From Escherichia phage Lambda_ev058: a DNA stretch of 47,678 nucleotides. Positions 5,703-39,401 of this stretch are shown here, in pieces (within the stretch, counting starts at the first letter, position 1; each line of letters starts with the position of its first letter). Made by a program: the position numbers and the translations under genes. The stretch lies in sequence record LR597651, one strand, 5' to 3'. Below the pieces are notes generated by a model, which did no database searches, was not told the origin of the DNA, and saw only the letters and a program-made list of their open reading frames with translations.

Positions 5703-6035
5703 ATGACGAGCAAAGAAACCTTTACCCATTACCAGCCGCTGGGCAACAGTGACCCGGCACATACGGCAACCGCGCCCGGCGGATTGAGTGCGAAAGCGCC
5801 TGCAATGACCCCGCTGATGCTGGACACCTCCACCCGTAAGCTGGTTGTGTGGGATGGCACCACCGACGGTGCTGCCGTTGGCATTCTGGCGGTTGCTGCT
5901 GACCAGACCAGCACCACGCTGACGTTCTACAAGTCCGGCACGTTCCGTTATGAGGATGTGCTCTGGCCGGAGGCTGCCAGCGACGAGACGAAAAAACGGA
6001 CCGCGTTTGCCGGAACGGCAATCAGCATCGTTTAA
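5703..6035 (+). CDS. D: head decoration protein D
   Basis: 110-aa product from [12 protein letters not shown]..., matching lambda gpD as recalled. Confidence 0.95.
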
Positions 6036-6090
6036 CCTTACCCTTCATCACTAAAGGCCGCCTGTGCGGCTTTTTTTACGGGATTTTTTT

Positions 6091-7116
6091 ATGTCGATGT
6101 ACACAACCGCCCAGCTGCTGGCGGCAAATGAGAAGAAATTTAAGTTTGATCCGCTGTTTCTGCGTCTCTTTTTCCGTGAGAGCTATCCCTTCACCACGGA
6201 GAAAGTCTATCTCTCACAAATTCCGGGACTGGTAAACATGGCGCTGTACGTTTCGCCGATTGTTTCCGGTGAGGTTATCCGCTCCCGTGGCGGCTCCACC
6301 TCTGAATTTACACCGGGATATGTCAAGCCGAAGCATGAGGTGAATCCGCAGATGACCCTGCGTCGCCTGCCGGATGAAGATCCACAGAATCTGGCGGACC
6401 CGGCTTACCGCCGCCGTCGCATCATTCTGCAGAACATGCGAGACGAAGAGCTGGCCATTGCTCAGGTCGAAGAGATGCAGGCCGTTTCTGCCGTGCTTAA
6501 GGGCAAATATACCATGACCGGTGAAGCCTTCGATCCGGTTGAAGTGGATATGGGCCGCAGTGTGGCGAACAACATCACGCAGTCCGGCGGTACGGAGTGG
6601 AGCAAGCGTGACAAGTCCACGTATGACCCGACCGACGATATCGAAGCCTACGCGCTGAACGCCAGCGGTGTGGTGAATATCATCGTGTTTGATCCGAAAG
6701 GCTGGGCGCTGTTCCGTTCCTTCAAAGCCGTCAAGGAGAAGCTGGATACCCGTCGCGGCTCTCATTCCGAGCTGGAGACAGCGGTAAAAGATCTGGGCGA
6801 AGCGGTGTCCTATAAGGGGATGTATGGCGATACGGCGATCGTCGTGTATTCCGGACAGTACGTGGAAAACGACGTCAAAAAGAACTTCCTGCCGGACAAC
6901 ACGATGGTGCTGGGGAACACTCAGGCACGCGGTCTGCGCACCTATGGCTGCATTCAGGATGCGGACGCACAGCGCGAAGGTATTAACGCCTCTGCCCGCT
7001 ACCCGAAAAACTGGGTGACCACCGGCGATCCGGCGCGTGAGTTCACCATGATTCAGTCAGCACCGCTGATGCTGCTGGCTGACCCTGATGCGTTCGTGTC
7101 CGTACAACTGGCGTAA
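6091..7116 (+). CDS. E: major capsid protein E
   Basis: 341-aa product from MSMYTTAQLLAANE..., matching lambda gpE as recalled; a stem-loop lies upstream in the D-E spacer. Confidence 0.95.
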   Translation: MSMYTTAQLLAANEKKFKFDPLFLRLFFRESYPFTTEKVYLSQIPGLVNMALYVSPIVSGEVIRSRGGSTSEFTPGYVKPKHEVNPQMTLRRLPDEDPQNLADPAYRRRRIILQNMRDEELAIAQVEEMQAVSAVLKGKYTMTGEAFDPVEVDMGRSVANNITQSGGTEWSKRDKSTYDPTDDIEAYALNASGVVNIIVFDPKGWALFRSFKAVKEKLDTRRGSHSELETAVKDLGEAVSYKGMYGDTAIVVYSGQYVENDVKKNFLPDNTMVLGNTQARGLRTYGCIQDADAQREGINASARYPKNWVTTGDPAREFTMIQSAPLMLLADPDAFVSVQLA

Positions 7117-19001: not shown

Positions 19002-19016
19002 ATTTGTGGAGTGAAT

Positions 19017-21038
19017 ATGGCAGTACAGATTTCAGGTGTGCTGAAAGACGGTGCAGGAAAACCGATACAGAACTGCACCATTCAGCTCAAAGCAAAACGT
19101 AACAGCACCACAGTTGTGGTGAACACGGTGGCCTCAGAAAATCCGGATGAAGCCGGACGTTACAGCATGGATGTTGAGTATGGCCAGTACAGCGTCGCCC
19201 TGCTGGTTGAAGGTTTTCCGCCTTCACATGCCGGGACCATCACCGTGTATGAGGATTCTAAGCCGGGGACATTGAATGATTTTCTGGGCGCTGCAACAGA
19301 AGATGATGTTTGTCCGGAGGCACTGTATCGTTTTGAAAAGATGGTGGAAGAGGCGGCACGCAACGCTGAAGCCGCCTCTCAGAGCGCAGCGGCAGCAAAG
19401 AAATCAGAAACAGCAGCGGCATCGTCCAGGAACGCGGCGAAAACATCAGAGACGAATGCAGGTAACAGCGCGAAAGCGGCAGCTTCTTCAAAAACAGCCG
19501 CACAAAACGCAGCAACAGCGGCAGAACGTTCAGAGACAAATGCCCGTGCGTCAGAAGAAGCCTCCGCAGACAGTGAAGAGGCTTCCCGCCGTAATGCAGA
19601 GTCAGCCGCTGAAAATGCCGGAGTCGCCACCACAAAAGCGCGGGAGGCCGCAGCAGACGCAACAAAGGCCGGGCAGAAAAAGGATGAGGCTCTGTCGGCA
19701 GCGACACGAGCTGAAAAGGCGGCAGACCGCGCAGAAGCCGCAGCGGAAGTGACTGCAGAGCCCTGTGCGAATATAGTGCCGCCGCTGCCTGATGTGTGGA
19801 TACCGTTTAACGATTCACTGGATATGATTACGGGTTTTTCGCCATCTTATAAAAAGATAGTTATTGGTGACGATGAAATAACAATGCCAGGCGACAAGAT
19901 TGTTAAGTTTAAACGTGCTTCAACAGCAACGTATATTAATAAGTCCGGCCAACTCAAGCTTGCTGAAGTTGACGAACCGCGATTTGAGCGCGATGGCTTA
20001 TTGATTGAAGGACAGAGGACAAATTATCTGAGGAACTCAAATAAACCAGACTCATGGACTGTTCATTCCGCACTGAATAAAACATTTGGCACTGATAAAC
20101 AGGGGTTCAATTATGCCACGGTGACACCCACGGAAAGTATAGTGGGAACAACAGGTGGCTATACTGTGCATGGTGTGGTTGCAGCAGACAGATTCCCGCT
20201 GGCAAGTGGTGAATGTTTCACTTTTTCGTGCCGGGTTAAAGGCGCTAAAGCACGATGCAGGTTAAGAGTTTCAGTTATTATTGGTGGAACAGATACCTTC
20301 TCTGCTGACTCTTATCTTGATCTGGATACCCGGATCGCAACAGTAAGCGGTAATACATCCCTTATAACAGCCAAAGCTGAACAACAGGGCGAGTGGACCT
20401 ACTATGAGGCCACTTATACAGCTAATACGGACATTGATACCGTTAACTGTGCTTTTTATATGACAAATAAAATAAGTAATGAGCCATTCTATGATGACTC
20501 AACATTAACCATGACGACGCCGCAAATTGAACTGGGCAATACGGCATCGTCATTTATTGTAACTACAATGCCAACAACACGCGCAAGTGATGTAGTTACT
20601 ATCCCATCGCAGAATAACCTGTCAACACGGCCTTTTACGGTATTGTGCGAAGTAAGCAGGAACTGGAGTACACCGCCCAATGTTGCGCCAAGGATATTTG
20701 ATGTTGGAGGGCACAGTATTGATGATAATTATTTATCGCTGGGGTTTGTTGCAACAGGAAAGATAAGCGCCAACGTAGGAATGGTTCAGCCACAAATTGC
20801 CTCAGATGGAGAAAGGTTCATTGTGGGTGTGAGAGCTAAATCTGATTTATCAGTAAATGCAATATGCAATGGTAATTATACAACAAACCTTAATGGTAAA
20901 ATATTTGGAGTTACAGCAACATCGTACCGGTTTGGTGGGCAGACCGCAGCAGGAACGCGTCATTTGTTTGGACACATCAGAAATTTCAGAGTCTGGTTTA
21001 AAGAATTAAATGACAGGCAAATCAAGGAGGCAGTATGA
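19017..21038 (+). CDS. stf: side tail fiber protein with divergent C-terminal region
   Basis: N-terminal ~90 aa (MAVQISGVLKDGAGKPIQNCTIQLKA...HAGTITVYEDSKPGTLNDFL) resemble lambda Stf as recalled. Followed by Ala/Ser-rich SETNA-type fiber repeats and then an unrelated AT-rich C-terminal ~430 aa. RBS GGAG lies 6 nt before ATG 19017 (the track starts at GTG 19011). Confidence 0.8.
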   Translation: MAVQISGVLKDGAGKPIQNCTIQLKAKRNSTTVVVNTVASENPDEAGRYSMDVEYGQYSVALLVEGFPPSHAGTITVYEDSKPGTLNDFLGAATEDDVCPEALYRFEKMVEEAARNAEAASQSAAAAKKSETAAASSRNAAKTSETNAGNSAKAAASSKTAAQNAATAAERSETNARASEEASADSEEASRRNAESAAENAGVATTKAREAAADATKAGQKKDEALSAATRAEKAADRAEAAAEVTAEPCANIVPPLPDVWIPFNDSLDMITGFSPSYKKIVIGDDEITMPGDKIVKFKRASTATYINKSGQLKLAEVDEPRFERDGLLIEGQRTNYLRNSNKPDSWTVHSALNKTFGTDKQGFNYATVTPTESIVGTTGGYTVHGVVAADRFPLASGECFTFSCRVKGAKARCRLRVSVIIGGTDTFSADSYLDLDTRIATVSGNTSLITAKAEQQGEWTYYEATYTANTDIDTVNCAFYMTNKISNEPFYDDSTLTMTTPQIELGNTASSFIVTTMPTTRASDVVTIPSQNNLSTRPFTVLCEVSRNWSTPPNVAPRIFDVGGHSIDDNYLSLGFVATGKISANVGMVQPQIASDGERFIVGVRAKSDLSVNAICNGNYTTNLNGKIFGVTATSYRFGGQTAAGTRHLFGHIRNFRVWFKELNDRQIKEAV

Positions 21039-21313
21039 AAGATTTAACTTTGAAATTTCCTGGTAACAGAGAGTTTAAATCCTTCCTGTCATCTCTTGAC
21101 TGGGAGGAGGATGAAGACCTCCAGAATAAACTGTTAGTCGATGAAATTGGTTTCACCTACACAGAAACAGGGGTAACAGAAGAGGGAGAACCTGTCTGTG
21201 TCCGGAATGACGGTTATTTTGTCAACATTCGCATTCTTGATGACTTGTTTGATGTTTCTGTATTCTCTGATTATGTCGTGGAGCTGGAAACACCGCTTCG
21301 GGAATGGAGCTGA
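21035..21313 (+). CDS. hypothetical protein coupled to stf (possible fiber chaperone)
   Basis: 92-aa ORF whose start overlaps the stf stop (ATGA); acidic. No recognised homology. Confidence 0.5.
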   Translation: MKDLTLKFPGNREFKSFLSSLDWEEDEDLQNKLLVDEIGFTYTETGVTEEGEPVCVRNDGYFVNIRILDDLFDVSVFSDYVVELETPLREWS

Positions 21314-21325
21314 AAGGAGGAAATA

Positions 21326-21619
21326 ATGGATATAAGCCCCTTACTTCATGCACTTTGTGCTGTGGCTGCGCAGATACTGGTTGGTCTTTTTACCGGAAAC
21401 TGGGCTTACGGAGCGATAGCCGGTTGTACGTTCTTCATTGCGCGTGAACATACCCAGGCAGAATATCGCTGGATTGAAATGTTCGGGCATGGCAAGCGAA
21501 TGAATATGCCGTGGTGGGGCGGTTTTGATCCGCGAGCTTGGGATGTGGCAAGCCTGATGGATTTTGCTGTGCCGGTGGTGGCGTGTCTGCTGGTCTGGCT
21601 GTTGGTTAATCGTGGGTGA
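21326..21619 (+). CDS. hypothetical small membrane protein
   Basis: 97-aa ORF with AGGAGG RBS and two hydrophobic segments; no recognised homology. Confidence 0.5.
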   Translation: MDISPLLHALCAVAAQILVGLFTGNWAYGAIAGCTFFIAREHTQAEYRWIEMFGHGKRMNMPWWGGFDPRAWDVASLMDFAVPVVACLLVWLLVNRG

Positions 21620-21710
21620 AAAAAGGTGAGCTGTATATGCAACGGAGGAAGAAACCCCGTTGCTGGAAGCCAGGAAAAAGTATCGGGTGTTGCTGTCCTC
21701 GGATGTTGTG

Positions 21711-22568
21711 CTAATTGGGTGATAACAGATCCTGTGTATGGGAGTTTCCCTTTTTGCGTGCGTTGATGCTGGTAACGGCAAACGTCATGATGAACAAAAC
21801 CGCGAATAAGACGACAATCGTCGGAGCTGGTGCGCTGTCGATAAAAAAGGACAACCAGACACCAGTCATTGACACTATTACCGATATGCCAGTCGCCAGT
21901 AGGAGCGCAATATGAAAGCGTTGTGTCAGGAGTACCGCAATGGCGCCAGGCGCAATGAGCAGAGAAATGGAGAGAATGATACCTACCGCTTTCAGCGTCG
22001 CCACAATGGTCAGAGAGACCATGCACAGCAGCCCATAATGCAGCCATCTCGTATGCAAACCGCTTACCTGCGCCTGTTGATAATCAAAGCTGAACAGCAA
22101 AAAATCCCGCCATTTTACGCTAATAACAAGTGTAACCAGCCCGGCAATAATCATCGTCTGGATTATATCGCCGATGGTTATCCCGAGCATGTCGCCGAAA
22201 AGAATATGGTCAAGATGTACGTCTGGTTTGACTGCAATATACAAGATCAGACCTGCGGCAAACATGCCAGAAAAAACAATCCCCATCACTGTATCTTGCT
22301 TGATTCGGCTGTTGTCTTTCAGGTATCCCGTCGCCACCGCGCAGAATACTCCGGCGACGAATGCCCCTGTAGCCAAAGGTAACCCCAGAATCCAGGCAAG
22401 CACGATGCCAGGAAAAACCGCATGACTCATCGCGTCACCCATCAGTGCCCAACCTTTCAGGACCAGAAAGACCGACAGCAGCGCACAGGGTATGGAAACT
22501 ACCAGTGAAATCAGCAGTGCGTGACTCATAAAGGTGAACTGCAGTGGCTCCAGTAATAATGCCATCAT
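21711..22568 (-). CDS. sitD: Mn/Fe ABC transporter permease SitD
   Basis: 285-aa polytopic membrane protein of the MntC/ZnuB permease type; last gene of a four-gene operon with overlapping stop/start codons. Confidence 0.85.
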   Translation of the reverse strand: MMALLLEPLQFTFMSHALLISLVVSIPCALLSVFLVLKGWALMGDAMSHAVFPGIVLAWILGLPLATGAFVAGVFCAVATGYLKDNSRIKQDTVMGIVFSGMFAAGLILYIAVKPDVHLDHILFGDMLGITIGDIIQTMIIAGLVTLVISVKWRDFLLFSFDYQQAQVSGLHTRWLHYGLLCMVSLTIVATLKAVGIILSISLLIAPGAIAVLLTQRFHIALLLATGISVIVSMTGVWLSFFIDSAPAPTIVVLFAVLFIMTFAVTSINARKKGNSHTQDLLSPN

Positions 22569-23422
22569 GAGCGATCCTCCAGCGCCTTATGCGCACGCCG
22601 ACGATTTGCCAAAAGCCCATGGGTGGGCGCAAAGACAAATGCTAAAAGAAACAGCAGTGTCTGCGCCACCACGATGATTCCACCTGTCGCGCCGTCCAGA
22701 AAGTAACTGACCCACGCGCCGAGGAAACTGGTTACACTGCCAATAGTTACAGCAATCATGAGCAGGCGGGGAAAACGATCGGTTAACAACCATGCTGTTG
22801 CACCGGGAGTCACCACCAGACAGATCACCAGAAAGGCACCAACCGTTTGCAGCGCCGCAACGGTCGAAACCGACAGCAGGGTGAAGAAGAGGAGTTTTAA
22901 TCTGCCCGGATGCAATCCAATAGCACGGGCGTGATTCTCGTCGAAAAAGGTCACCATAAGATCTTTCCATTTGAAAAAAAGCACGATGATCGAGAGAATG
23001 CCAATGATAGTGAGTTGCAGGATATCCGCCGGATCGATTGCCAGAATATTGCCCAGGACGATGGTCTGAATGTTCACAGATGTCGGGTTCAATGACACCA
23101 TAAACAGCCCCAGGCCAAAAAAGGACGAGAAGATCAGACCGATGATGGCATCTTCTTTTAAGCGGGTGCGTTGGTTAAGAAACAGCATGCTGCCCGCAGC
23201 CAGTCCGCCGGAAAAGAAGGCTCCCAGAGAAAACGGAAGCCCCAGCATATATGCCCCCGCAACACCCGGGACAATAGAGTGCGACAACGCATCGCCAATC
23301 AGCGACCAGCCTTTTAGCATCAGATAGCATGACAGGAAAGCGCAGAGACCGCCGACCATCGCCGAGACCCACATCGCATTGAGCATATATTCATAGCTGA
23401 AGGGTTCCAGTAGCACGTTCAT
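22565..23422 (-). CDS. sitC: Mn/Fe ABC transporter permease SitC
   Basis: 285-aa permease paralogous to SitD; start overlaps the sitB stop. Confidence 0.85.
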
Positions 23423-24246
23423 CTTTCTTCCCTCTGCACCGCTGACGGTCGATGAGCCACAAAAGGGCGTTCATCGTCAGTAATAATGCTTTCTTCCGAG
23501 CCGTTAAGTGTGACATGGCGCAGTACGCCGCTAAAAGCCAGCTCTAGGTTCTCGGCTGTAAAAGTGGTGTCTGTCGGCCCGCTTGCCAGGACGGTGCCTT
23601 TGACCATGACCGTATAATCGCAAAATGTCGTGACGGATCCGAGATTGTGTGTTGAGACAAGCATCGTTTTGCCTTCCGCGCGTAACTCCCTCAACAGGCT
23701 GATGATTTTGGCTTCGGTTTTCACATCAACGCCAGTAAAAGGTTCATCCAGCAGGATCACATCACCCTGCTGTGCAATCGCTCTCGCCAGAAAGACGCGT
23801 TTCTTTTGTCCACCGGAAAGCTCGCCGATTTGTCGATGGCGAAAATTCACCATATCGACACGTTCCAGCGCATCGGTGACAATTTGACGATCCCTCTTTT
23901 TGGCGATACGCAACATACCCATATGCCCATAGCGGCCCATCATCACCACATCTTCCACCAGTACAGGAAATGACCAGTCAACATCTTCTGACTGAGGGAC
24001 GTAGGCAACCAGGTTTTTCTGTAACGCCTGTCGCGTGGGAATACCCAGAACAGATATCTTTCCGCTGGTCAGACGCACAAATCCCATAATCGCTTTAAAC
24101 AACGTCGATTTTCCGGAACCGTTTACCCCAACCAGAGCGGCAATAGATCCACTTGGTACTGTGAAGGATGCATCGCGCAGTGCTGTGTGCCCGTTACGCC
24201 AGGTGACAGTAACATCATTAACGACAATGCCTGCAGATTGCATCAT
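23419..24246 (-). CDS. sitB: Mn/Fe ABC transporter ATP-binding protein SitB
   Basis: 275-aa protein with Walker A (GVNGSGKST), ABC signature (LSGGQ) and Walker B (ILLDEP). Confidence 0.9.
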
Positions 24247-25160
24247 TATTTCTCCCTTTTCCCAGCTTTAATTCCCTGTACCAGCGTACTGGTAGTAACC
24301 TTAAGAAGGTCGATATACGTCGGTACCGGGCCGTTTTCTGTGCTCAGGGAATCGACATAGAGCACACCGCCGTAGTGTGCGCCGGTTTCACGCGCAACCT
24401 GACGCGCTGGTTTATCGGAAATCGTACTCTCGCTAAAGACTGCCGGGATATGATTTTTCTTAACTATATCAACAACCTTACGTACCTGCTGCGGTGTTCC
24501 TTGTTGATCGGCATTAATCGGCCACAGATAAAGCTCTTTTAGCCCCAAATCGCGTGCGAGATAAGAAAAAGCCCCTTCACTGGTGACCATCCATCGCTGA
24601 TTCTCAGGGAGTTCCGTAATCTGCTTACGCAGGGGGGCAAGGGTTTGGGTAATCTTGGCTTTATAAGTATCGGCATTGCGTTGGTAGGTTTGTGCATTTG
24701 CCGGATCGTATTTTATCAACGCATCACGAATATTATCGACGTAAATCAGAGCATTATCTGGCGACATCCATGCATGGGGGTTAGGTTTGCCCTCATAGGG
24801 TCCTTCGGTGATCCCTACAGGCGTCACACCCGAAGAGACAATTACTTCTGGAACCCCATTGAGATGCTGGTAAAAGCGTTGGAACCACAATTCCAGATTC
24901 ATACCATTGGCGAGAATCAGTTGTGCCCCCTGCGCACGTTTAATATCGCCAGGGGTAGGCTGATACTCATGAATTTCTGCACCAGGCTTGGTTATGGATG
25001 AGACTTCTGCAGCATCTCCCGCCACGTTTTTGGCCATATCCGCGATGATGGTAAATGTTGTAATGACCTTGAATTTTTCAGTTGCACTTGCCTGAAATGC
25101 GATCGAGCAGGTGAGTGCGAGCCCCCCCAAGAGCATGGTTACTTTTTTTATCGAGTGCAT
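24246..25160 (-). CDS. sitA: periplasmic Mn/Fe-binding protein SitA
   Basis: 304-aa protein with an N-terminal signal peptide and a TroA/cluster-9 solute-binding fold signature; first gene of the operon. Confidence 0.9.
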
Positions 25161-25192
25161 AATTTAGTACCTATAGTGAGCAAAATTAGAAC

Positions 25193-25214
25193 AAACATAG
25201 CAACGGCTATGTTT
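25193..25214. promoter_or_regulatory. MntR box upstream of sitA
   Basis: Direct: perfect inverted repeat AAACATAGC-AACG-GCTATGTTT. It matches the E. coli/Salmonella MntR operator (established). Confidence 0.75.
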
Positions 25215-25236
25215 TATAGCACAGCCTATACAAAAT

Positions 25237-25256
25237 GAAAATGATTATCATTAGCA
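25237..25256. promoter_or_regulatory. Fur box upstream of sitA
   Basis: Direct: GAAAATGATTATCATTAGC matches the Fur consensus GATAATGATAATCATTATC at 16 of 19 positions. Confidence 0.65.
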
Positions 25257-25557
25257 ACTTTGAGGCCCAAAACAGGGATTAGGTTGTTTCCTGCTGGCGA
25301 CGCGTTATTGAGGAAAAAAGTAAGGCAGCTAGTAGGCTTTGAAATAACGTTTTGCGGTTGGCTGATGCAATTTCGAGAGTGCATGTATTGAATGATTTCT
25401 AGCCGTTACTGATTTTCGTATTTTTTGTATGGGAGGATTTGCACCTCCCCCCACCGAGCCTCCATGACTTTACTCCACTGTCTCTAGGGCTGCTGTGTGC
25501 CAGGAGCGGAAGCAGGGGGGGCCAGAGACTCCTTAAAAGTTGATAGCTCGTTTTGCA

Positions 25558-25650
25558 GGGAGACTTACACGGTAAGCGTTATTCCGAAGAGCTTAAAATT
25601 GAAGCAGTCAAACGGGTTGTTGAGCGTGTTTATGCGCTGCCATCTGATTA
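25558..25650 (+). pseudogene. IS3-family transposase OrfA N-terminal remnant
   Basis: Short frame translating to GDLHGKRYSEELKIEAVKRVVERVYALPSD-stop. The KRYSEEhKhEAVK motif is typical of IS3-family OrfA N-termini; there is no start codon or full-length ORF. Confidence 0.3.
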
Positions 25651-25847
25651 ATCGACGGAAGCAGTTCCGTTTGGTCTATGATGCAGTTGTCCGGCAGGCG
25701 CTCTGTGACGCAAAAGAACGATAGGAGTAGCATTGAAGTGAACGAGGTTATGCTTGTCTTATATTATCCTCTATTTTAAAAACATCAGCTGGTTGTGTAA
25801 GAGTTTTTATTGTTTTATCTTGTTGACTTTGCTTTTATGAAAACAGA

Positions 25848-26618
25848 GTGATTGATACAATGAAAACCTTAAGTGGGAAAGAGTTTAGGAAATTATTTAA
25901 TCGTTATGAGACAGGATTCTATCTAAGTGAGTTTGAATACTTAAAGGACTTTGATCCTTTGTTTCCTGAATGCGTAGGGAAAGAATTAAAGTTGGGTTAT
26001 AAACGAAAAGTTGATGTATGGTGCGAAGAGGATGCTGCGCTATATGCAGAATTTATAGCTACAAAAGAAAGGCTGAAAAGAGGCCGGTTAATCCTAAAAA
26101 TAAACCAAGTGTGGTCGCGTGTATATCCTGCTTATATTTATGCAATTGAAGAAAGAATAAATGTCAGGGCAAAGGGGAGAGAGTCATTTAAGTATGAAAC
26201 TGTGCAAGAAAAACAATGTAAACTTTCCATAATGTTAGATGGTCTGAAAGACCTTGAATGTGAAATAGCTATGATTTCAAGTGAGTTTGAAATTGAAAAA
26301 CACTCTATGCACTATTTTTATATGATTTTTGATATTGAACGCTATATAAATGACTGCAGTTACTTTGTTTTTTCTGCTGCTAAAGTTGTTAAAGGCGTGA
26401 TTCAATGCATTGGTTACATTGACAAAAATAACAAAGCAAGTTGCGATGAATTTTATTCAGGCAGCTATGAATGCTTGGATGATGATCAGGAAACACTGAA
26501 CTATTTAAATGAATCATGCGCAGAGGGTATAGACGCTGATAAAGATCTCATCAGGAAGAATGAGTTATTAGCCTTATCCCTGAAGGAATTGTATCAACTT
26601 CTCGTTTCAAAAAAATAA
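25848..26618 (+). CDS. hypothetical protein, AT-rich accessory gene
   Basis: 256-aa ORF with strongly AT-biased codons, unlike the neighbouring phage genes; no recognised domain. Lies in the variable b-region between the sit operon and attP. Confidence 0.6.
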   Translation: MIDTMKTLSGKEFRKLFNRYETGFYLSEFEYLKDFDPLFPECVGKELKLGYKRKVDVWCEEDAALYAEFIATKERLKRGRLILKINQVWSRVYPAYIYAIEERINVRAKGRESFKYETVQEKQCKLSIMLDGLKDLECEIAMISSEFEIEKHSMHYFYMIFDIERYINDCSYFVFSAAKVVKGVIQCIGYIDKNNKASCDEFYSGSYECLDDDQETLNYLNESCAEGIDADKDLIRKNELLALSLKELYQLLVSKK

Positions 26619-27084
26619 CAAGTAATACGGCGAGCGATATGACGTGCCATGGGATATCCGCACCCAGCAGCATGTTGTCTCCACGATGTCCGCAGTTCGC
26701 TCATAATAGACATTCACTACAGTTATAGTAGAAGGTATGCATGCTGCTGAGTGGGGAAAGTGTGAAAGAAAAGAAGACAGCTGCTTTGTTTGTCGTCACG
26801 TTTATCTTCATTGGCTATGCAAGTCGTAATACAAGGCGGGACAAAACTGAGACACATAAGGCCTCGCAATGGCTTGCAAGGCCACACATGTATTGAGATG
26901 TTAATAAAATGTAGACTTGTAATTTTGATATAAATGGTAGAGAAAATCTTTCCCCAAAATAAAAACGAACGTCAATGAAATCAAACGGTTGAATAAAGTT
27001 GATTTTGGCTAATACAAAGACAAGAAAATAATATTTATGATTAAATATCAGCGAGTTGAATACATAATTTTTATATACTGTTAC

Positions 27085-27242
27085 GCCATATGGGCTGGAC
27101 TGAAGCCGCAGACCTGATTGTTAAAGGTATGGAAGGCGCAATCAACGCCAAGACTGTAACCTATGACTTCGAACGTCTGATGGAAGGCGCTAAATTGCTG
27201 AAATGTAGCGAGTTTGGCGACGCGATCATCAAGAACATGTAA
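27085..27242 (+). other. icd: phage-borne copy of the 3' end of icd (attP core region)
   Basis: Reading frame ends ...[52 protein letters not shown]-stop, i.e. the C-terminus of isocitrate dehydrogenase. Phage 21 and e14 integrate at the icd 3' end and carry a replacement copy (established). Confidence 0.8.
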
Positions 27243-27265
27243 TCACTACATGTGTTAAATATTTA

Positions 27266-27294
27266 AACGGGCGTGTTATACGCCCGTTGTTTTA
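27266..27294 (+). terminator. intrinsic terminator after the icd fragment
   Basis: Direct: AACGGGCG-loop-CGCCCGTT stem followed by GTTTTAT. Confidence 0.6.
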
Positions 27295-27309
27295 TGATGA
27301 TGTAAAATC

Positions 27310-27345
27310 TTCCCCAAAACTTTCCCCAAAACCCTTCCCCAAAAC
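27310..27345. repeat. three tandem TTCCCCAAAAC repeats, candidate integrase arm-type sites
   Basis: Direct: TTCCCCAAAAC at 27310-27320, 27322-27332 and 27335-27345, abutting the int 3' end; a fourth copy at 26949-26959 lies on the other side of the icd core. Confidence 0.6.
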
Positions 27346-27355
27346 TGGCTATTTT

Positions 27356-28498
27356 CTATGCTGTTTTGATATCTACGATAACCCAGTCTTTACCACGATC
27401 ATCATTGTATCGGTCGGTCATTTTTCTGGATTTATGGCCTAACAACTTTTGCGTATCCAGACCCTGTTCCCGATATAACCGTTCTGACAGAGATCGCTGC
27501 TCATGAAATGTGGGCGCAGTTCCTTGCTCCCATTTTATGCCACATTTTTCCCTGGCCTTTTTAAAAGCCGTTGTCAGAGTATTTGCAGAAACCTGGTCTC
27601 CTCTGTTTGCTTGAGAGGTAGTGTGACGGTAATGGACCAGATATTTACTAACAACAGCATCCCTGCACTGAGATATAACTTCACGAAGGGTAATATTCAG
27701 AGCATCGCATTTCAGGTTAAGCGGAATAGCAAGTTTTGAACCGGTTTTTTCCTGAGTAATGTGCAACATGTCGTCCCAGATATCAGAGAATTTCAAATTG
27801 CAGATATCACCTAAACGTTGTCCAGTAACAAGAGCAAGTAGCATGCCGCATTTTAAATAGGGCTGCCGTCTGCTTACGCTTTCAAATATTGCCTGCCATT
27901 CGGGCAGTGACAATCTTTGGCGGTTTACTCGATTTCGCGGTTGTTTTGTTGCCTGCGCTGGGTTAAATCCTGGCGGAACATGTCCTGCGTGTTGTGCTTC
28001 TTTGAAGACGTCGATCAACACCATTCTCACGACTTGCGCCATCCTGTTATGACCTTCAGCCTTTACAGCATCAATTATTTCGGCAATATCAAGTGCGGTA
28101 ATATCCTTGAGGTGTTGCATTCCACAATGCTCACGGAAAAGACGAATGGGTTTGCCTTTTTGCCGATAGGAGTTGGGTCTTAGTTCATTATGTTGCAGCC
28201 TGTCCTCCTGGATAGAAATATATTTATCAAGCCATTCTGTCACCGTAATTTCTGAGCGCCTGCCTTTCATTCTTTCCAGACGCTCATTGACGCTTAATAT
28301 TTGTCGGGTACGTTGTTCAGCAATAATGGTATTTGCTTCAGTAGCAACTTGTTTTGCTTCATTCTCATCAGTTCCTAAGCTATGAAAACGACCGGATAGT
28401 GGATGTTTGTATTGCCAATATACCTTTCCGGTTCGCTTATCTAATTTGCAATATAAATTGGGTATAGAGATTTTGTGAGATCGGGGTCTAGCAGCCAT
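27356..28498 (-). CDS. int: tyrosine integrase (lambda Int family, icd-targeting type)
   Basis: 380-aa ORF; C-terminus ...LLGHKSRKMTDRYNDDRGKDW resembles the lambda Int catalytic tail (LGHKS...Y..DDRG). Adjacent to xis and attP. Confidence 0.9.
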   Translation of the reverse strand: MAARPRSHKISIPNLYCKLDKRTGKVYWQYKHPLSGRFHSLGTDENEAKQVATEANTIIAEQRTRQILSVNERLERMKGRRSEITVTEWLDKYISIQEDRLQHNELRPNSYRQKGKPIRLFREHCGMQHLKDITALDIAEIIDAVKAEGHNRMAQVVRMVLIDVFKEAQHAGHVPPGFNPAQATKQPRNRVNRQRLSLPEWQAIFESVSRRQPYLKCGMLLALVTGQRLGDICNLKFSDIWDDMLHITQEKTGSKLAIPLNLKCDALNITLREVISQCRDAVVSKYLVHYRHTTSQANRGDQVSANTLTTAFKKAREKCGIKWEQGTAPTFHEQRSLSERLYREQGLDTQKLLGHKSRKMTDRYNDDRGKDWVIVDIKTA

Positions 28499-32085: not shown

Positions 32086-32218
32086 TTTTTGGGACTCCTG
32101 GCTGATTAAGTATGTCGATAAGGCGTTTCCATCCGTCACGTAATTTACGGGTGATTCGTTCAAGTAAAGATTCGGAAGGGCAGCCAGCAACAGGCCACCC
32201 TGCAATGGCATATTGCAT
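32054..32218 (-). CDS. cIII: CIII, FtsH inhibitor that stabilises CII
   Basis: 54-aa ORF below the track cut-off; translated by hand as [54 protein letters not shown], matching lambda CIII as recalled. Confidence 0.85.
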   Translation of the reverse strand: MQYAIAGWPVAGCPSESLLERITRKLRDGWKRLIDILNQPGVPKNGSNTYGYPD

Positions 32219-32290
32219 GGTGTGCTCCTTATTTATACATAACGAAAAACGCCTCGAGTGAAGCGTTATTGGTATGCGGTAACGCCGCGC

Positions 32291-38690: not shown

Positions 38691-39401
38691 GTGCACAGAA
38701 AACCCCCAGCTAGGCTGGGGGTTCCGGAAAGCTTTCAGCTTTGAGCCAGTTATTAAAACCCCTTTTGATTTGTTAAAACACCTTGCGGTCTGGCAACTGC
38801 AAGTGTCAAACAAGAAATCAAAAGGGGGTCCCAATGGGGAACGAAAAGAGCTTAGCGCACACCCGATGGAACTGTAAATATCACATAGTTTTTGCGCCAA
38901 AATACCGAAGACAGGTGTTCTACAGAGAGAAGCGTAGAGCAATAGGCAGTATTTTGAGAAAGCTGTGTGAGTGGAAAAGCGTACGGATTCTGGAAGCTGA
39001 ATGCTGTGCAGATCATATCCATATGCTTGTGGAGATCCCGCCTAAAATGAGCGTATCCGGGTTTATGGGATATCTGAAAGGGAAAAGCAGTCTGATGCTT
39101 TACGAGCAGTTTGGTGATTTGAAATTCAAATACAGGAACAGGGAGTTCTGGTGCAGAGGGTACTACGTCGATACAGTGGGTAAGAACACGGCGAAGATAC
39201 AGGATTACATAAAGCACCAGCTTGAAGAGGATAAAATGGGAGAGCAGTTATCGATTCCCTATCCGGGCAGCCCGTTTACGGGCCGTAAGTAACGAAGTTG
39301 GATGCAAATGTCAGATCGTGTGCGCCTGTTAGGGCGCGGCTGGTAAGAGAGCCTTATAGGCGCATTTGAAAAACCTCCGGCTATGCCGGAGGATATTTAT
39401 T
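38691..39401 (+). mobile_element. IS200 insertion sequence (IS200/IS605 family)
   Basis: About 711 bp inserted in the ren-ninB spacer. Left-end stem-loop CCCCCAGC-TAG-GCTGGGGG (38702-38720), tnpA, and right-end hairpin CCTCCGG-CTATG-CCGGAGG (39374-39392). Boundaries inferred by comparison with the recalled lambda spacer; accurate to about 5 bp. Confidence 0.75.
38834..39292 (+). CDS. tnpA: IS200 transposase TnpA (Y1 HUH)
   Basis: 152-aa product from MGNEKSLAHTRWNCKYHIVFAPKYRRQ..., with the HxH motif (ADHIHML) and catalytic Tyr region; closely matches IS200 TnpA as recalled. Confidence 0.9.
   Translation: MGNEKSLAHTRWNCKYHIVFAPKYRRQVFYREKRRAIGSILRKLCEWKSVRILEAECCADHIHMLVEIPPKMSVSGFMGYLKGKSSLMLYEQFGDLKFKYRNREFWCRGYYVDTVGKNTAKIQDYIKHQLEEDKMGEQLSIPYPGSPFTGRK

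Follow-up and report, generated by a model that had tools for sequence, protein, structure and literature searches.

We analysed a window of 47,678 nt from Escherichia phage Lambda_ev058 (sequence record LR597651; "the window" designates this whole stretch of DNA). The interval 21711-25260 of its minus strand carries the sitABCD operon, four genes predicted to code for a manganese and iron importer, together with the regulatory region upstream of sitA. In the order of the operon, the genes are the following.

24246-25160, minus strand: sitA, an open reading frame (ORF) for a periplasmic Mn/Fe-binding protein of 304 amino acids, with a Sec signal peptide ending ...QASA
23419-24246, minus strand: sitB, an ORF for an ATP-binding cassette (ABC) ATPase of 275 amino acids, supported by NCBIfam NF011630
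22565-23422, minus strand: sitC, an ORF for a permease of 285 amino acids, supported by Pfam ABC-3
21711-22568, minus strand: sitD, an ORF for a permease of 285 amino acids, supported by Pfam ABC-3

Each of the four genes ends in a single stop codon, and frameshifts or internal stops are absent. Decay of the sit genes was considered and rejected. Adjacent genes overlap by 1 nt at the sitA/sitB junction (TAATG) and by 4 nt at both the sitB/sitC and sitC/sitD junctions (ATGA); overlaps of this size are the usual sign of translational coupling. An initial annotation, made from the letters alone, had described a complete set of four tightly coupled genes on the minus strand, and this description was confirmed down to the exact coordinates.

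The nature of the encoded proteins was then examined. SitB passes the NCBIfam equivalog model NF011630 'manganese/iron ABC transporter ATP-binding protein' with 592.8 bits, as compared to a cutoff of 393, and carries the Walker A, LSGGQ and Walker B motifs. SitA matches Pfam ZnuA, the ZnuA/TroA family of binding proteins, with 288 bits, and Pfam ABC-3 recognizes both SitC (278.8 bits) and SitD (257.8 bits). The best solved relative of SitA is Yersinia pestis YfeA, with E=4e-125 over residues 24-297. In this comparison, SitA residues His64, His129, Glu195 and Asp270 align with the ligand positions of YfeA. The corresponding residues in the YfeA and PsaA structures form a Mn/Fe-type site. SitA accordingly has a His-His-Glu-Asp site of the Mn/Fe type and not a His-rich site of the Zn type. 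A ZnuA-type zinc system was rejected as a candidate. A single operon combines a binding protein, an ATPase and two ABC-3 permeases, as expected of a SitABCD/YfeABCD-type (cluster A-I) importer, and the lengths of sitA to sitD are equal to those of the sitA-D genes annotated by PGAP (the Prokaryotic Genome Annotation Pipeline) on plasmid and chromosome.

The region upstream of sitA contains the following elements, given from the most distal to the most proximal with respect to the gene.

25237-25255: predicted Fur box, a 19-mer reading GCTAATGATAATCATTTTC on the gene strand, with 17/19 matches to the consensus, overlapping the predicted -35
25213-25241, minus strand: predicted sigma-70 promoter read from the sequence, with -35 TTTTCA (25241-25236), a 17-nt spacer and an extended -10 TGcTATAAA (25221-25213)
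25216-25229: second, imperfect MntR-type core palindrome, reading ATAGG-CTGT-GCTAT on the gene strand
25193-25214: predicted proximal MntR operator, a perfect 9-4-9 inverted repeat, AAACATAGCAACGGCTATGTTT

The proximal palindrome, which had been called a near-perfect MntR box, in fact shows no mismatch to the 9-N4-9 pattern AAACATAGC-N4-GCTATGTTT. It is the sole match to this pattern in the 47.7 kb even with 3 mismatches allowed (0.01 expected). Its half-sites are the same as those of the E. coli K-12 mntH promoter, which reads AAACATAGC-AAAG-GCTATGTTT on the mntH strand. This host promoter also has a Fur-like AT-rich box just upstream of its MntR box. A literature search with the box sequence 'AACATAGC' returned unrelated sequence matches only. 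The imperfect palindrome, of which the initial annotation made no mention, lies 19 bp upstream of the perfect one. Within the window, the motif ATAGS-N4-SCTAT is matched only by this palindrome and by the proximal box (0.14 expected).

As compared to the consensus GATAATGATAATCATTATC, the Fur 19-mer has 3 mismatches on the plus strand (16/19) and 2 on the gene strand (17/19). It is the only such site in the 47.7-kb window, for 0.01 expected. The Fur box proposed earlier at 25237-25256 is therefore real, although its end had been set one base too far and actually lies at 25255. The operators and the putative promoter are interlocked. Five of the six bases of the predicted -35 are inside the Fur box, the predicted extended -10 lies within and between the two palindromes, the imperfect palindrome overlaps the spacer and the -10, and the proximal palindrome covers the 3′ edge of the predicted -10 as well as the predicted transcription start. 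The position of the promoter, though a prediction, is plausible, and transcription would be expected to start near 25206, inside the proximal MntR box.

To what extent this layout is conserved was examined by scanning species-representative genomes with SitA. Sit loci were found in many Enterobacterales and in alpha-, beta- and other gammaproteobacteria. In Enterobacterales, an ATAGC-N4-GCTAT palindrome is located about 54-57 nt upstream of the sitA ATG (70-76 nt in some genera), and a Fur-like AT-rich 19-mer about 90-99 nt upstream of it. We aligned ten upstream regions, from the window, an IncF plasmid, Phytobacter, Shimwellia, Citrobacter, Salmonella arizonae, Enterobacter, Buttiauxella, Atlantibacter and Erwinia. 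In this alignment, the 4-nt spacers vary, whereas no change is seen in the GCTAT of the -10 region or in either half-site of the proximal box. Because the half-sites are kept while the spacers change, the palindrome is better explained as a protein-binding site than as an RNA hairpin. Tandem palindromes separated by a 5-nt gap were present upstream of sitA in 14 loci; the left half-site of the distal palindrome is degenerate in Salmonella and Citrobacter.

Outside Enterobacterales, Rhizobiales and other alphaproteobacteria account for most of the closest SitA relatives (64-76% identity), and some come from Oceanospirillales, Aeromonadales, Vibrionaceae and Burkholderiales. The MntR palindrome is missing from the regions upstream of these relatives (8-9 mismatches), some of which carry a different conserved AT-rich palindrome, for example GCAAATGAGAAGCATTCGC.

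The operon is placed between the side tail fibre gene (19011-21038) followed by two small conserved ORFs on one side, and attP on the other. It occupies the non-essential arm of the lambdoid genome and runs antisense to the late operon. The surrounding features are listed below.

21035-21619, plus strand: two small ORFs of 92 and 97 amino acids between the side tail fibre and sitD, PHROGs 1361 and 1443, of unknown function
26943-27346: phage-21-type attP region, with arm-type integrase sites on either side of an icd 3′ fragment
27304-27346 (in tandem) and 26943-26960: arm-type repeats YYTTCCCCAAAA, repeat family D1
27090-27242: icd 3′ fragment (ORF for the C-terminal part of icd), within the attP region
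27266-27288: terminator-like hairpin of the icd fragment, from the terminator scan
27356-28498, minus strand: tyrosine integrase, on the same strand as sit and called integrase in collinear records

The window as a whole is collinear with sequenced lambdoid phage genomes, and the phage 21 record annotates both the attP subsites P1P2P3 and the icd pseudogene. The arm-type repeats, the icd fragment, the integrase and the collinearity with phage 21 confirm the location first proposed for sit, between the tail-fiber module and attP. Since the 92- and 97-amino-acid ORFs also occur in Rac-type prophages devoid of sit, they belong to the phage backbone and not to the sit module.

The limits of the sit module were delineated from homology end-points in phage, plasmid and chromosomal copies.

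21684-21695: left junction between the sit module and the phage backbone, from BLAST end-points
25297-25348: right limits of the common sit module, 25297 in phage 4A7-type records and 25348 in IncF plasmids and other chromosomal copies

On the left, homology to the sit-less Rac-type prophage of BL21(DE3) stops at 21695, and homology to other sit copies starts at 21684 (IncF/ColV plasmids) or 21691 (another chromosomal copy). The plasmid sit is 96.7% identical over 21684-25345/25348 and the chromosomal copy 97.2% identical over 21691-25348. On the right, homology to phage 4A7 ends at 25297; this phage is a member of another genus (Bievrevirus), with the same icd/int module. All right end-points (25297-25348) lie upstream of both operators. 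The comparison with chromosomal and plasmid sit loci, suggested along with the initial annotation, thus delimits a common module running from 21684/21691 to 25297/25348, with both boxes inside. From these end-points, the mobile unit is about 3.6 kb long, starts 16-27 bp past the sitD stop and always includes both operators. Placed between phage modules beside attP and absent from an otherwise homologous prophage (homology ending at 21695), the operon is situated as expected of a moron.

The module is widespread. At least 80% of the sit query was found in 2336 of 5426 complete E. coli genomes, and 740 genomes contain at least 80% of the flank just upstream of sitA (25300-25850), a flank common to the window and phage 21. 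The sister allele was found in 1014 plasmid records. As a separate observation, the sit operon of E. coli EC100 ends a Rac-site prophage, beside uspF and ompN. In this strain, a 79%-identical copy of about 130 bp located upstream of the sit module (25340-25471) is found beyond sitD, that is on the other side of the operon (6005-6137 of the EC100 locus, L002). Judging from the order of the segments, this arrangement looks like a circular permutation of a unit made of sit and its flank. That the approximately 130-bp segment is a dispersed repeat was ruled out, the median being one place per genome.

Overall, the data indicate that the window very probably carries a complete SitABCD Mn2+/Fe2+ importer as a lysogenic-conversion moron of a phage-21-like (Jouyvirus) lambdoid phage, which would be expressed from its own predicted sigma-70 promoter under the control of the Fur and MntR proteins of the host. 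On the side of our own analysis, this reading draws on the integrity of the genes, the presence and significance of the motifs, the identity of the half-sites with those of mntH, the conservation of the operator layout and the identity to the cargo of viable phages. Published work shows that Fur and MntR repress sit in Salmonella and Shigella, and that the Perceval operon, identical to this one, is expressed in a lysogen. Like the position of the promoter, occupancy of the operators on this phage DNA and a fitness benefit for the lysogen are inferred.

The following mechanism can be proposed. Upon integration into icd by recombination at attP, the prophage would have int at one end and sit at the other. 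Because of this separation, sit would be driven only by its own promoter in the lysogen. Given the overlap between the predicted promoter and the operators, Fe2+-bound Fur would block the -35 of the sitA promoter, and Mn2+-bound MntR would keep the -10 and the start inaccessible by occupying two tandem palindromes, which lie around the -10 and extend over the predicted start. The lysogen would thereby gain a high-affinity Mn/Fe uptake system that stays off until the host senses a shortage of iron or manganese.

Several observations weigh against this view. First, no NCBIfam model scored above cutoff with SitA, SitC or SitD, and these three names come from homologues of identical length annotated by PGAP. 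Second, the promoter/terminator consensus scan did not call the sitA promoter, because the terminal T is missing from its -10. The sitA ATG is preceded by a weak Shine-Dalgarno sequence, AGG, 9 nt 5′ of it. No canonical intrinsic terminator belonging to the operon was detected 3′ of sitD by the promoter/terminator scan and folding; a hairpin with a 7-bp stem is located about 45 nt downstream, but it has no U-run and its fold z-score, about -2, is marginal. Finally, the terminator scan also flags the palindrome 25193-25214 as a terminator-like hairpin. An Rfam scan of the whole window gave no match in or beside the sit region.

Whether sit could also be transcribed by the phage has to be considered. 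The initial annotation had opposed host metal regulation to phage promoters. The operators support the first part of this statement, but the exclusion of phage promoters can be drawn for the lysogen only, since in the excised genome the operon is co-directional with int and downstream of it. Indeed, sitABCD shares its strand with int (27356-28498), sit is about 2.2 kb downstream of int after excision, and the terminator scan finds only weak terminator-like hairpins in the interval between them (26883-26860 and 26865-26849). One may therefore imagine an operon with two modes. In the lysogen, it would be gated by Fur and MntR, with cooperative binding to the tandem MntR sites giving a tighter Mn repression than that of the weaker plasmid allele. 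After excision, it would be included in the N-antiterminated pL transcript via int/attP and would behave as a metal-independent lytic auxiliary metabolic gene. We regard this as unlikely. In a related proposal, which we consider a little less likely still, sit would also, or even mainly, serve as an auxiliary metabolic gene of the lytic cycle, through N-antiterminated leftward readthrough from pL across attP, regardless of Fur and MntR. Against a lytic role, strong host-type operators have been kept, and the same promoter is found on plasmids and in non-phage contexts. The operon is moreover expressed in uninduced lysogens, as reported for Perceval (PMC9928086), and an ABC importer made minutes before lysis would bring no obvious benefit.

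A second alternative is that the palindrome 25193-25214 is a terminator or attenuator hairpin and that the AT-rich 19-mer resembles a Fur box by chance. The listing of the palindrome by the terminator scan, with a 9-bp stem followed by GTTCTAATTT, goes in this direction. However, the stem contains only 3 G-C pairs, the half-sites are those of the mntH promoter and are maintained across genera while the spacer varies, and a second palindrome is in register 19 bp away. As for the 19-mer, 17/19 matches with 0.01 sites expected argue against chance. This explanation is accordingly very improbable. Lastly, the idea that the sit region is host chromosome adjoining a prophage end was rejected and appears barely conceivable: the icd 3′ fragment is indeed only 1.9 kb from sitA and sit does occur at several chromosomal sites and on plasmids, but sit lies inside the phage genome with respect to attP, and genomes obtained from virions or plaques (phage 21, the Lambda_ev and 1H12 records, Perceval) show this order too. 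Moreover, the phage 21 annotation note identifies the icd fragment as the known duplicate that the phage carries and that makes icd whole again once the phage has integrated.

Other features of the window were also noted. Between sit and attP, divergent from sitA, a 256-amino-acid ORF is located at 25848-26618 on the plus strand. It belongs to PHROG 20520, of unknown function, and a Pfam search with it gave no match. This ORF, which may be a second moron, is kept in phage 21 and Lambda_ev110, and phage 4A7 has other sequence in its place. Further away, after ren in the nin region, the window has a 705-bp segment (38691-39395) that Lambda_ev110, 100% identical otherwise, does not have. Within this segment are an IS200-like Y1 transposase ORF at 38783-39292 (Pfam Y1_Tnp, E=5e-38) and, at 38701-38824, a full-length match to the Rfam Hfq-binding small RNA STnc490 (146 bits). 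From its content, this segment looks like an IS200-family insertion in the phage genome. A full-length Rfam match to the lambda cIII thermoregulator element was also found at 32173-32231 on the minus strand (88.5 bits).

The sit cargo, its position and its Fur box are already known for this phage group. Mathieu et al. (2020) reported sitABCD on 70% of infant E. coli Lambda phages, with a Fur box upstream (PMC6969025). Supplementary Fig. 7 of that study displays essentially the same upstream sequence, with the Fur box marked on the alignment according to its legend; MntR is not mentioned in the supplements, to which our search for it was confined. The MntR box itself nevertheless has the form that is standard in enterobacteria. 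Misson et al. (2023) described the Perceval sitA-D genes as morons, transcribed 4-13-fold above the prophage background in the LF82 lysogen (PMC9928086). Earlier, in 2010, sit was listed among the prophage cargo of enteroaggregative E. coli 042, and the 'PAI sit' pathogenicity island of Shigella and E. coli has been located at several chromosomal sites (PMC7545054). Repression of SitABCD by Mn-MntR and Fe-Fur in enterobacteria has been reviewed (PMC3852070), and repression of sit in Salmonella was re-tested with sitA-lacZ fusions (PMC8970401). Transport of Mn2+ and Fe2+ is known for the SitABCD homologues of Salmonella, Shigella and avian pathogenic E. coli (PMC3852070). In line with the initial annotation of sit as a fitness and virulence factor, its role in virulence was shown experimentally in Salmonella and Shigella (PMC3852070, PMC8970401, PMC7545054). 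The second MntR-type palindrome, the promoter/operator geometry and the module boundaries are small additions to this record, the rest being either published already or directly derivable from published records. The value of the present analysis is confirmatory: functional temperate phages rank among the main carriers of a recognised fitness and virulence factor, and the operators that accompany the cassette would connect it directly to the metal sensing of the host.

Among known systems, the closest are other phages. Over 21500-25500, the window is 100% identical to about ten sequenced lambdoid phages of the infant gut, including Lambda_2E9, 4B5, 2G7a, ev245, ev110, ev066 and 1H12, and to Perceval of the adherent-invasive E. 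coli strain LF82. The presence of identical cargo in plaque-forming phages agrees with the earlier suggestion that the phage could mobilise sit. In its right half, the window is 100% identical to Lambda_ev110 but for a single insertion of 705 bp, the extra IS200-like element of the window at 38691-39395. Phage 21 (OL657228) is 99.7% identical at the nucleotide level over 21500-25500, with a few substitutions. It shows the same order as the window, namely side tail fibre, the two small ORFs, sitDCBA, a hypothetical ORF (the one of 256 amino acids in the window), icd 3′ pseudogene, attP, int and xis. Elsewhere, the relationship between phage 21 and the window is mosaic, and the tail-fibre region is homologous only in part.

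Outside phages, the operon architecture is the same in Salmonella pathogenicity island 1 (SPI-1) and in the Shigella flexneri 'PAI sit'. In the S. arizonae sit locus, the promoter is laid out as in the phage, the MntR box coming after the Fur box. The SitA protein of Salmonella shares about 74% identity with that of the phage, but the locus resides in SPI-1 and not in a functional phage, and its boxes differ, with a degenerate palindrome (ATACC...GCTAT) and a weaker Fur box (6 mismatches). The IncF/ColV plasmid sitABCD, 96.7% identical with the operators included, is a distinct allele that has IS1 and the aerobactin region on its flanks; its Fur box (4 mismatches) and its MntR box (1 mismatch) are slightly weaker. 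YfeABCD of Yersinia pestis is likewise a Mn/Fe ABC importer, though chromosomal, and Yfe is controlled by Fur alone, MntR being absent from Yersinia (PMC3852070). Finally, the K-12 mntH promoter contains one clear palindrome and drives the gene of an NRAMP transporter, whereas the sit operon of the phage is preceded by a tandem pair.

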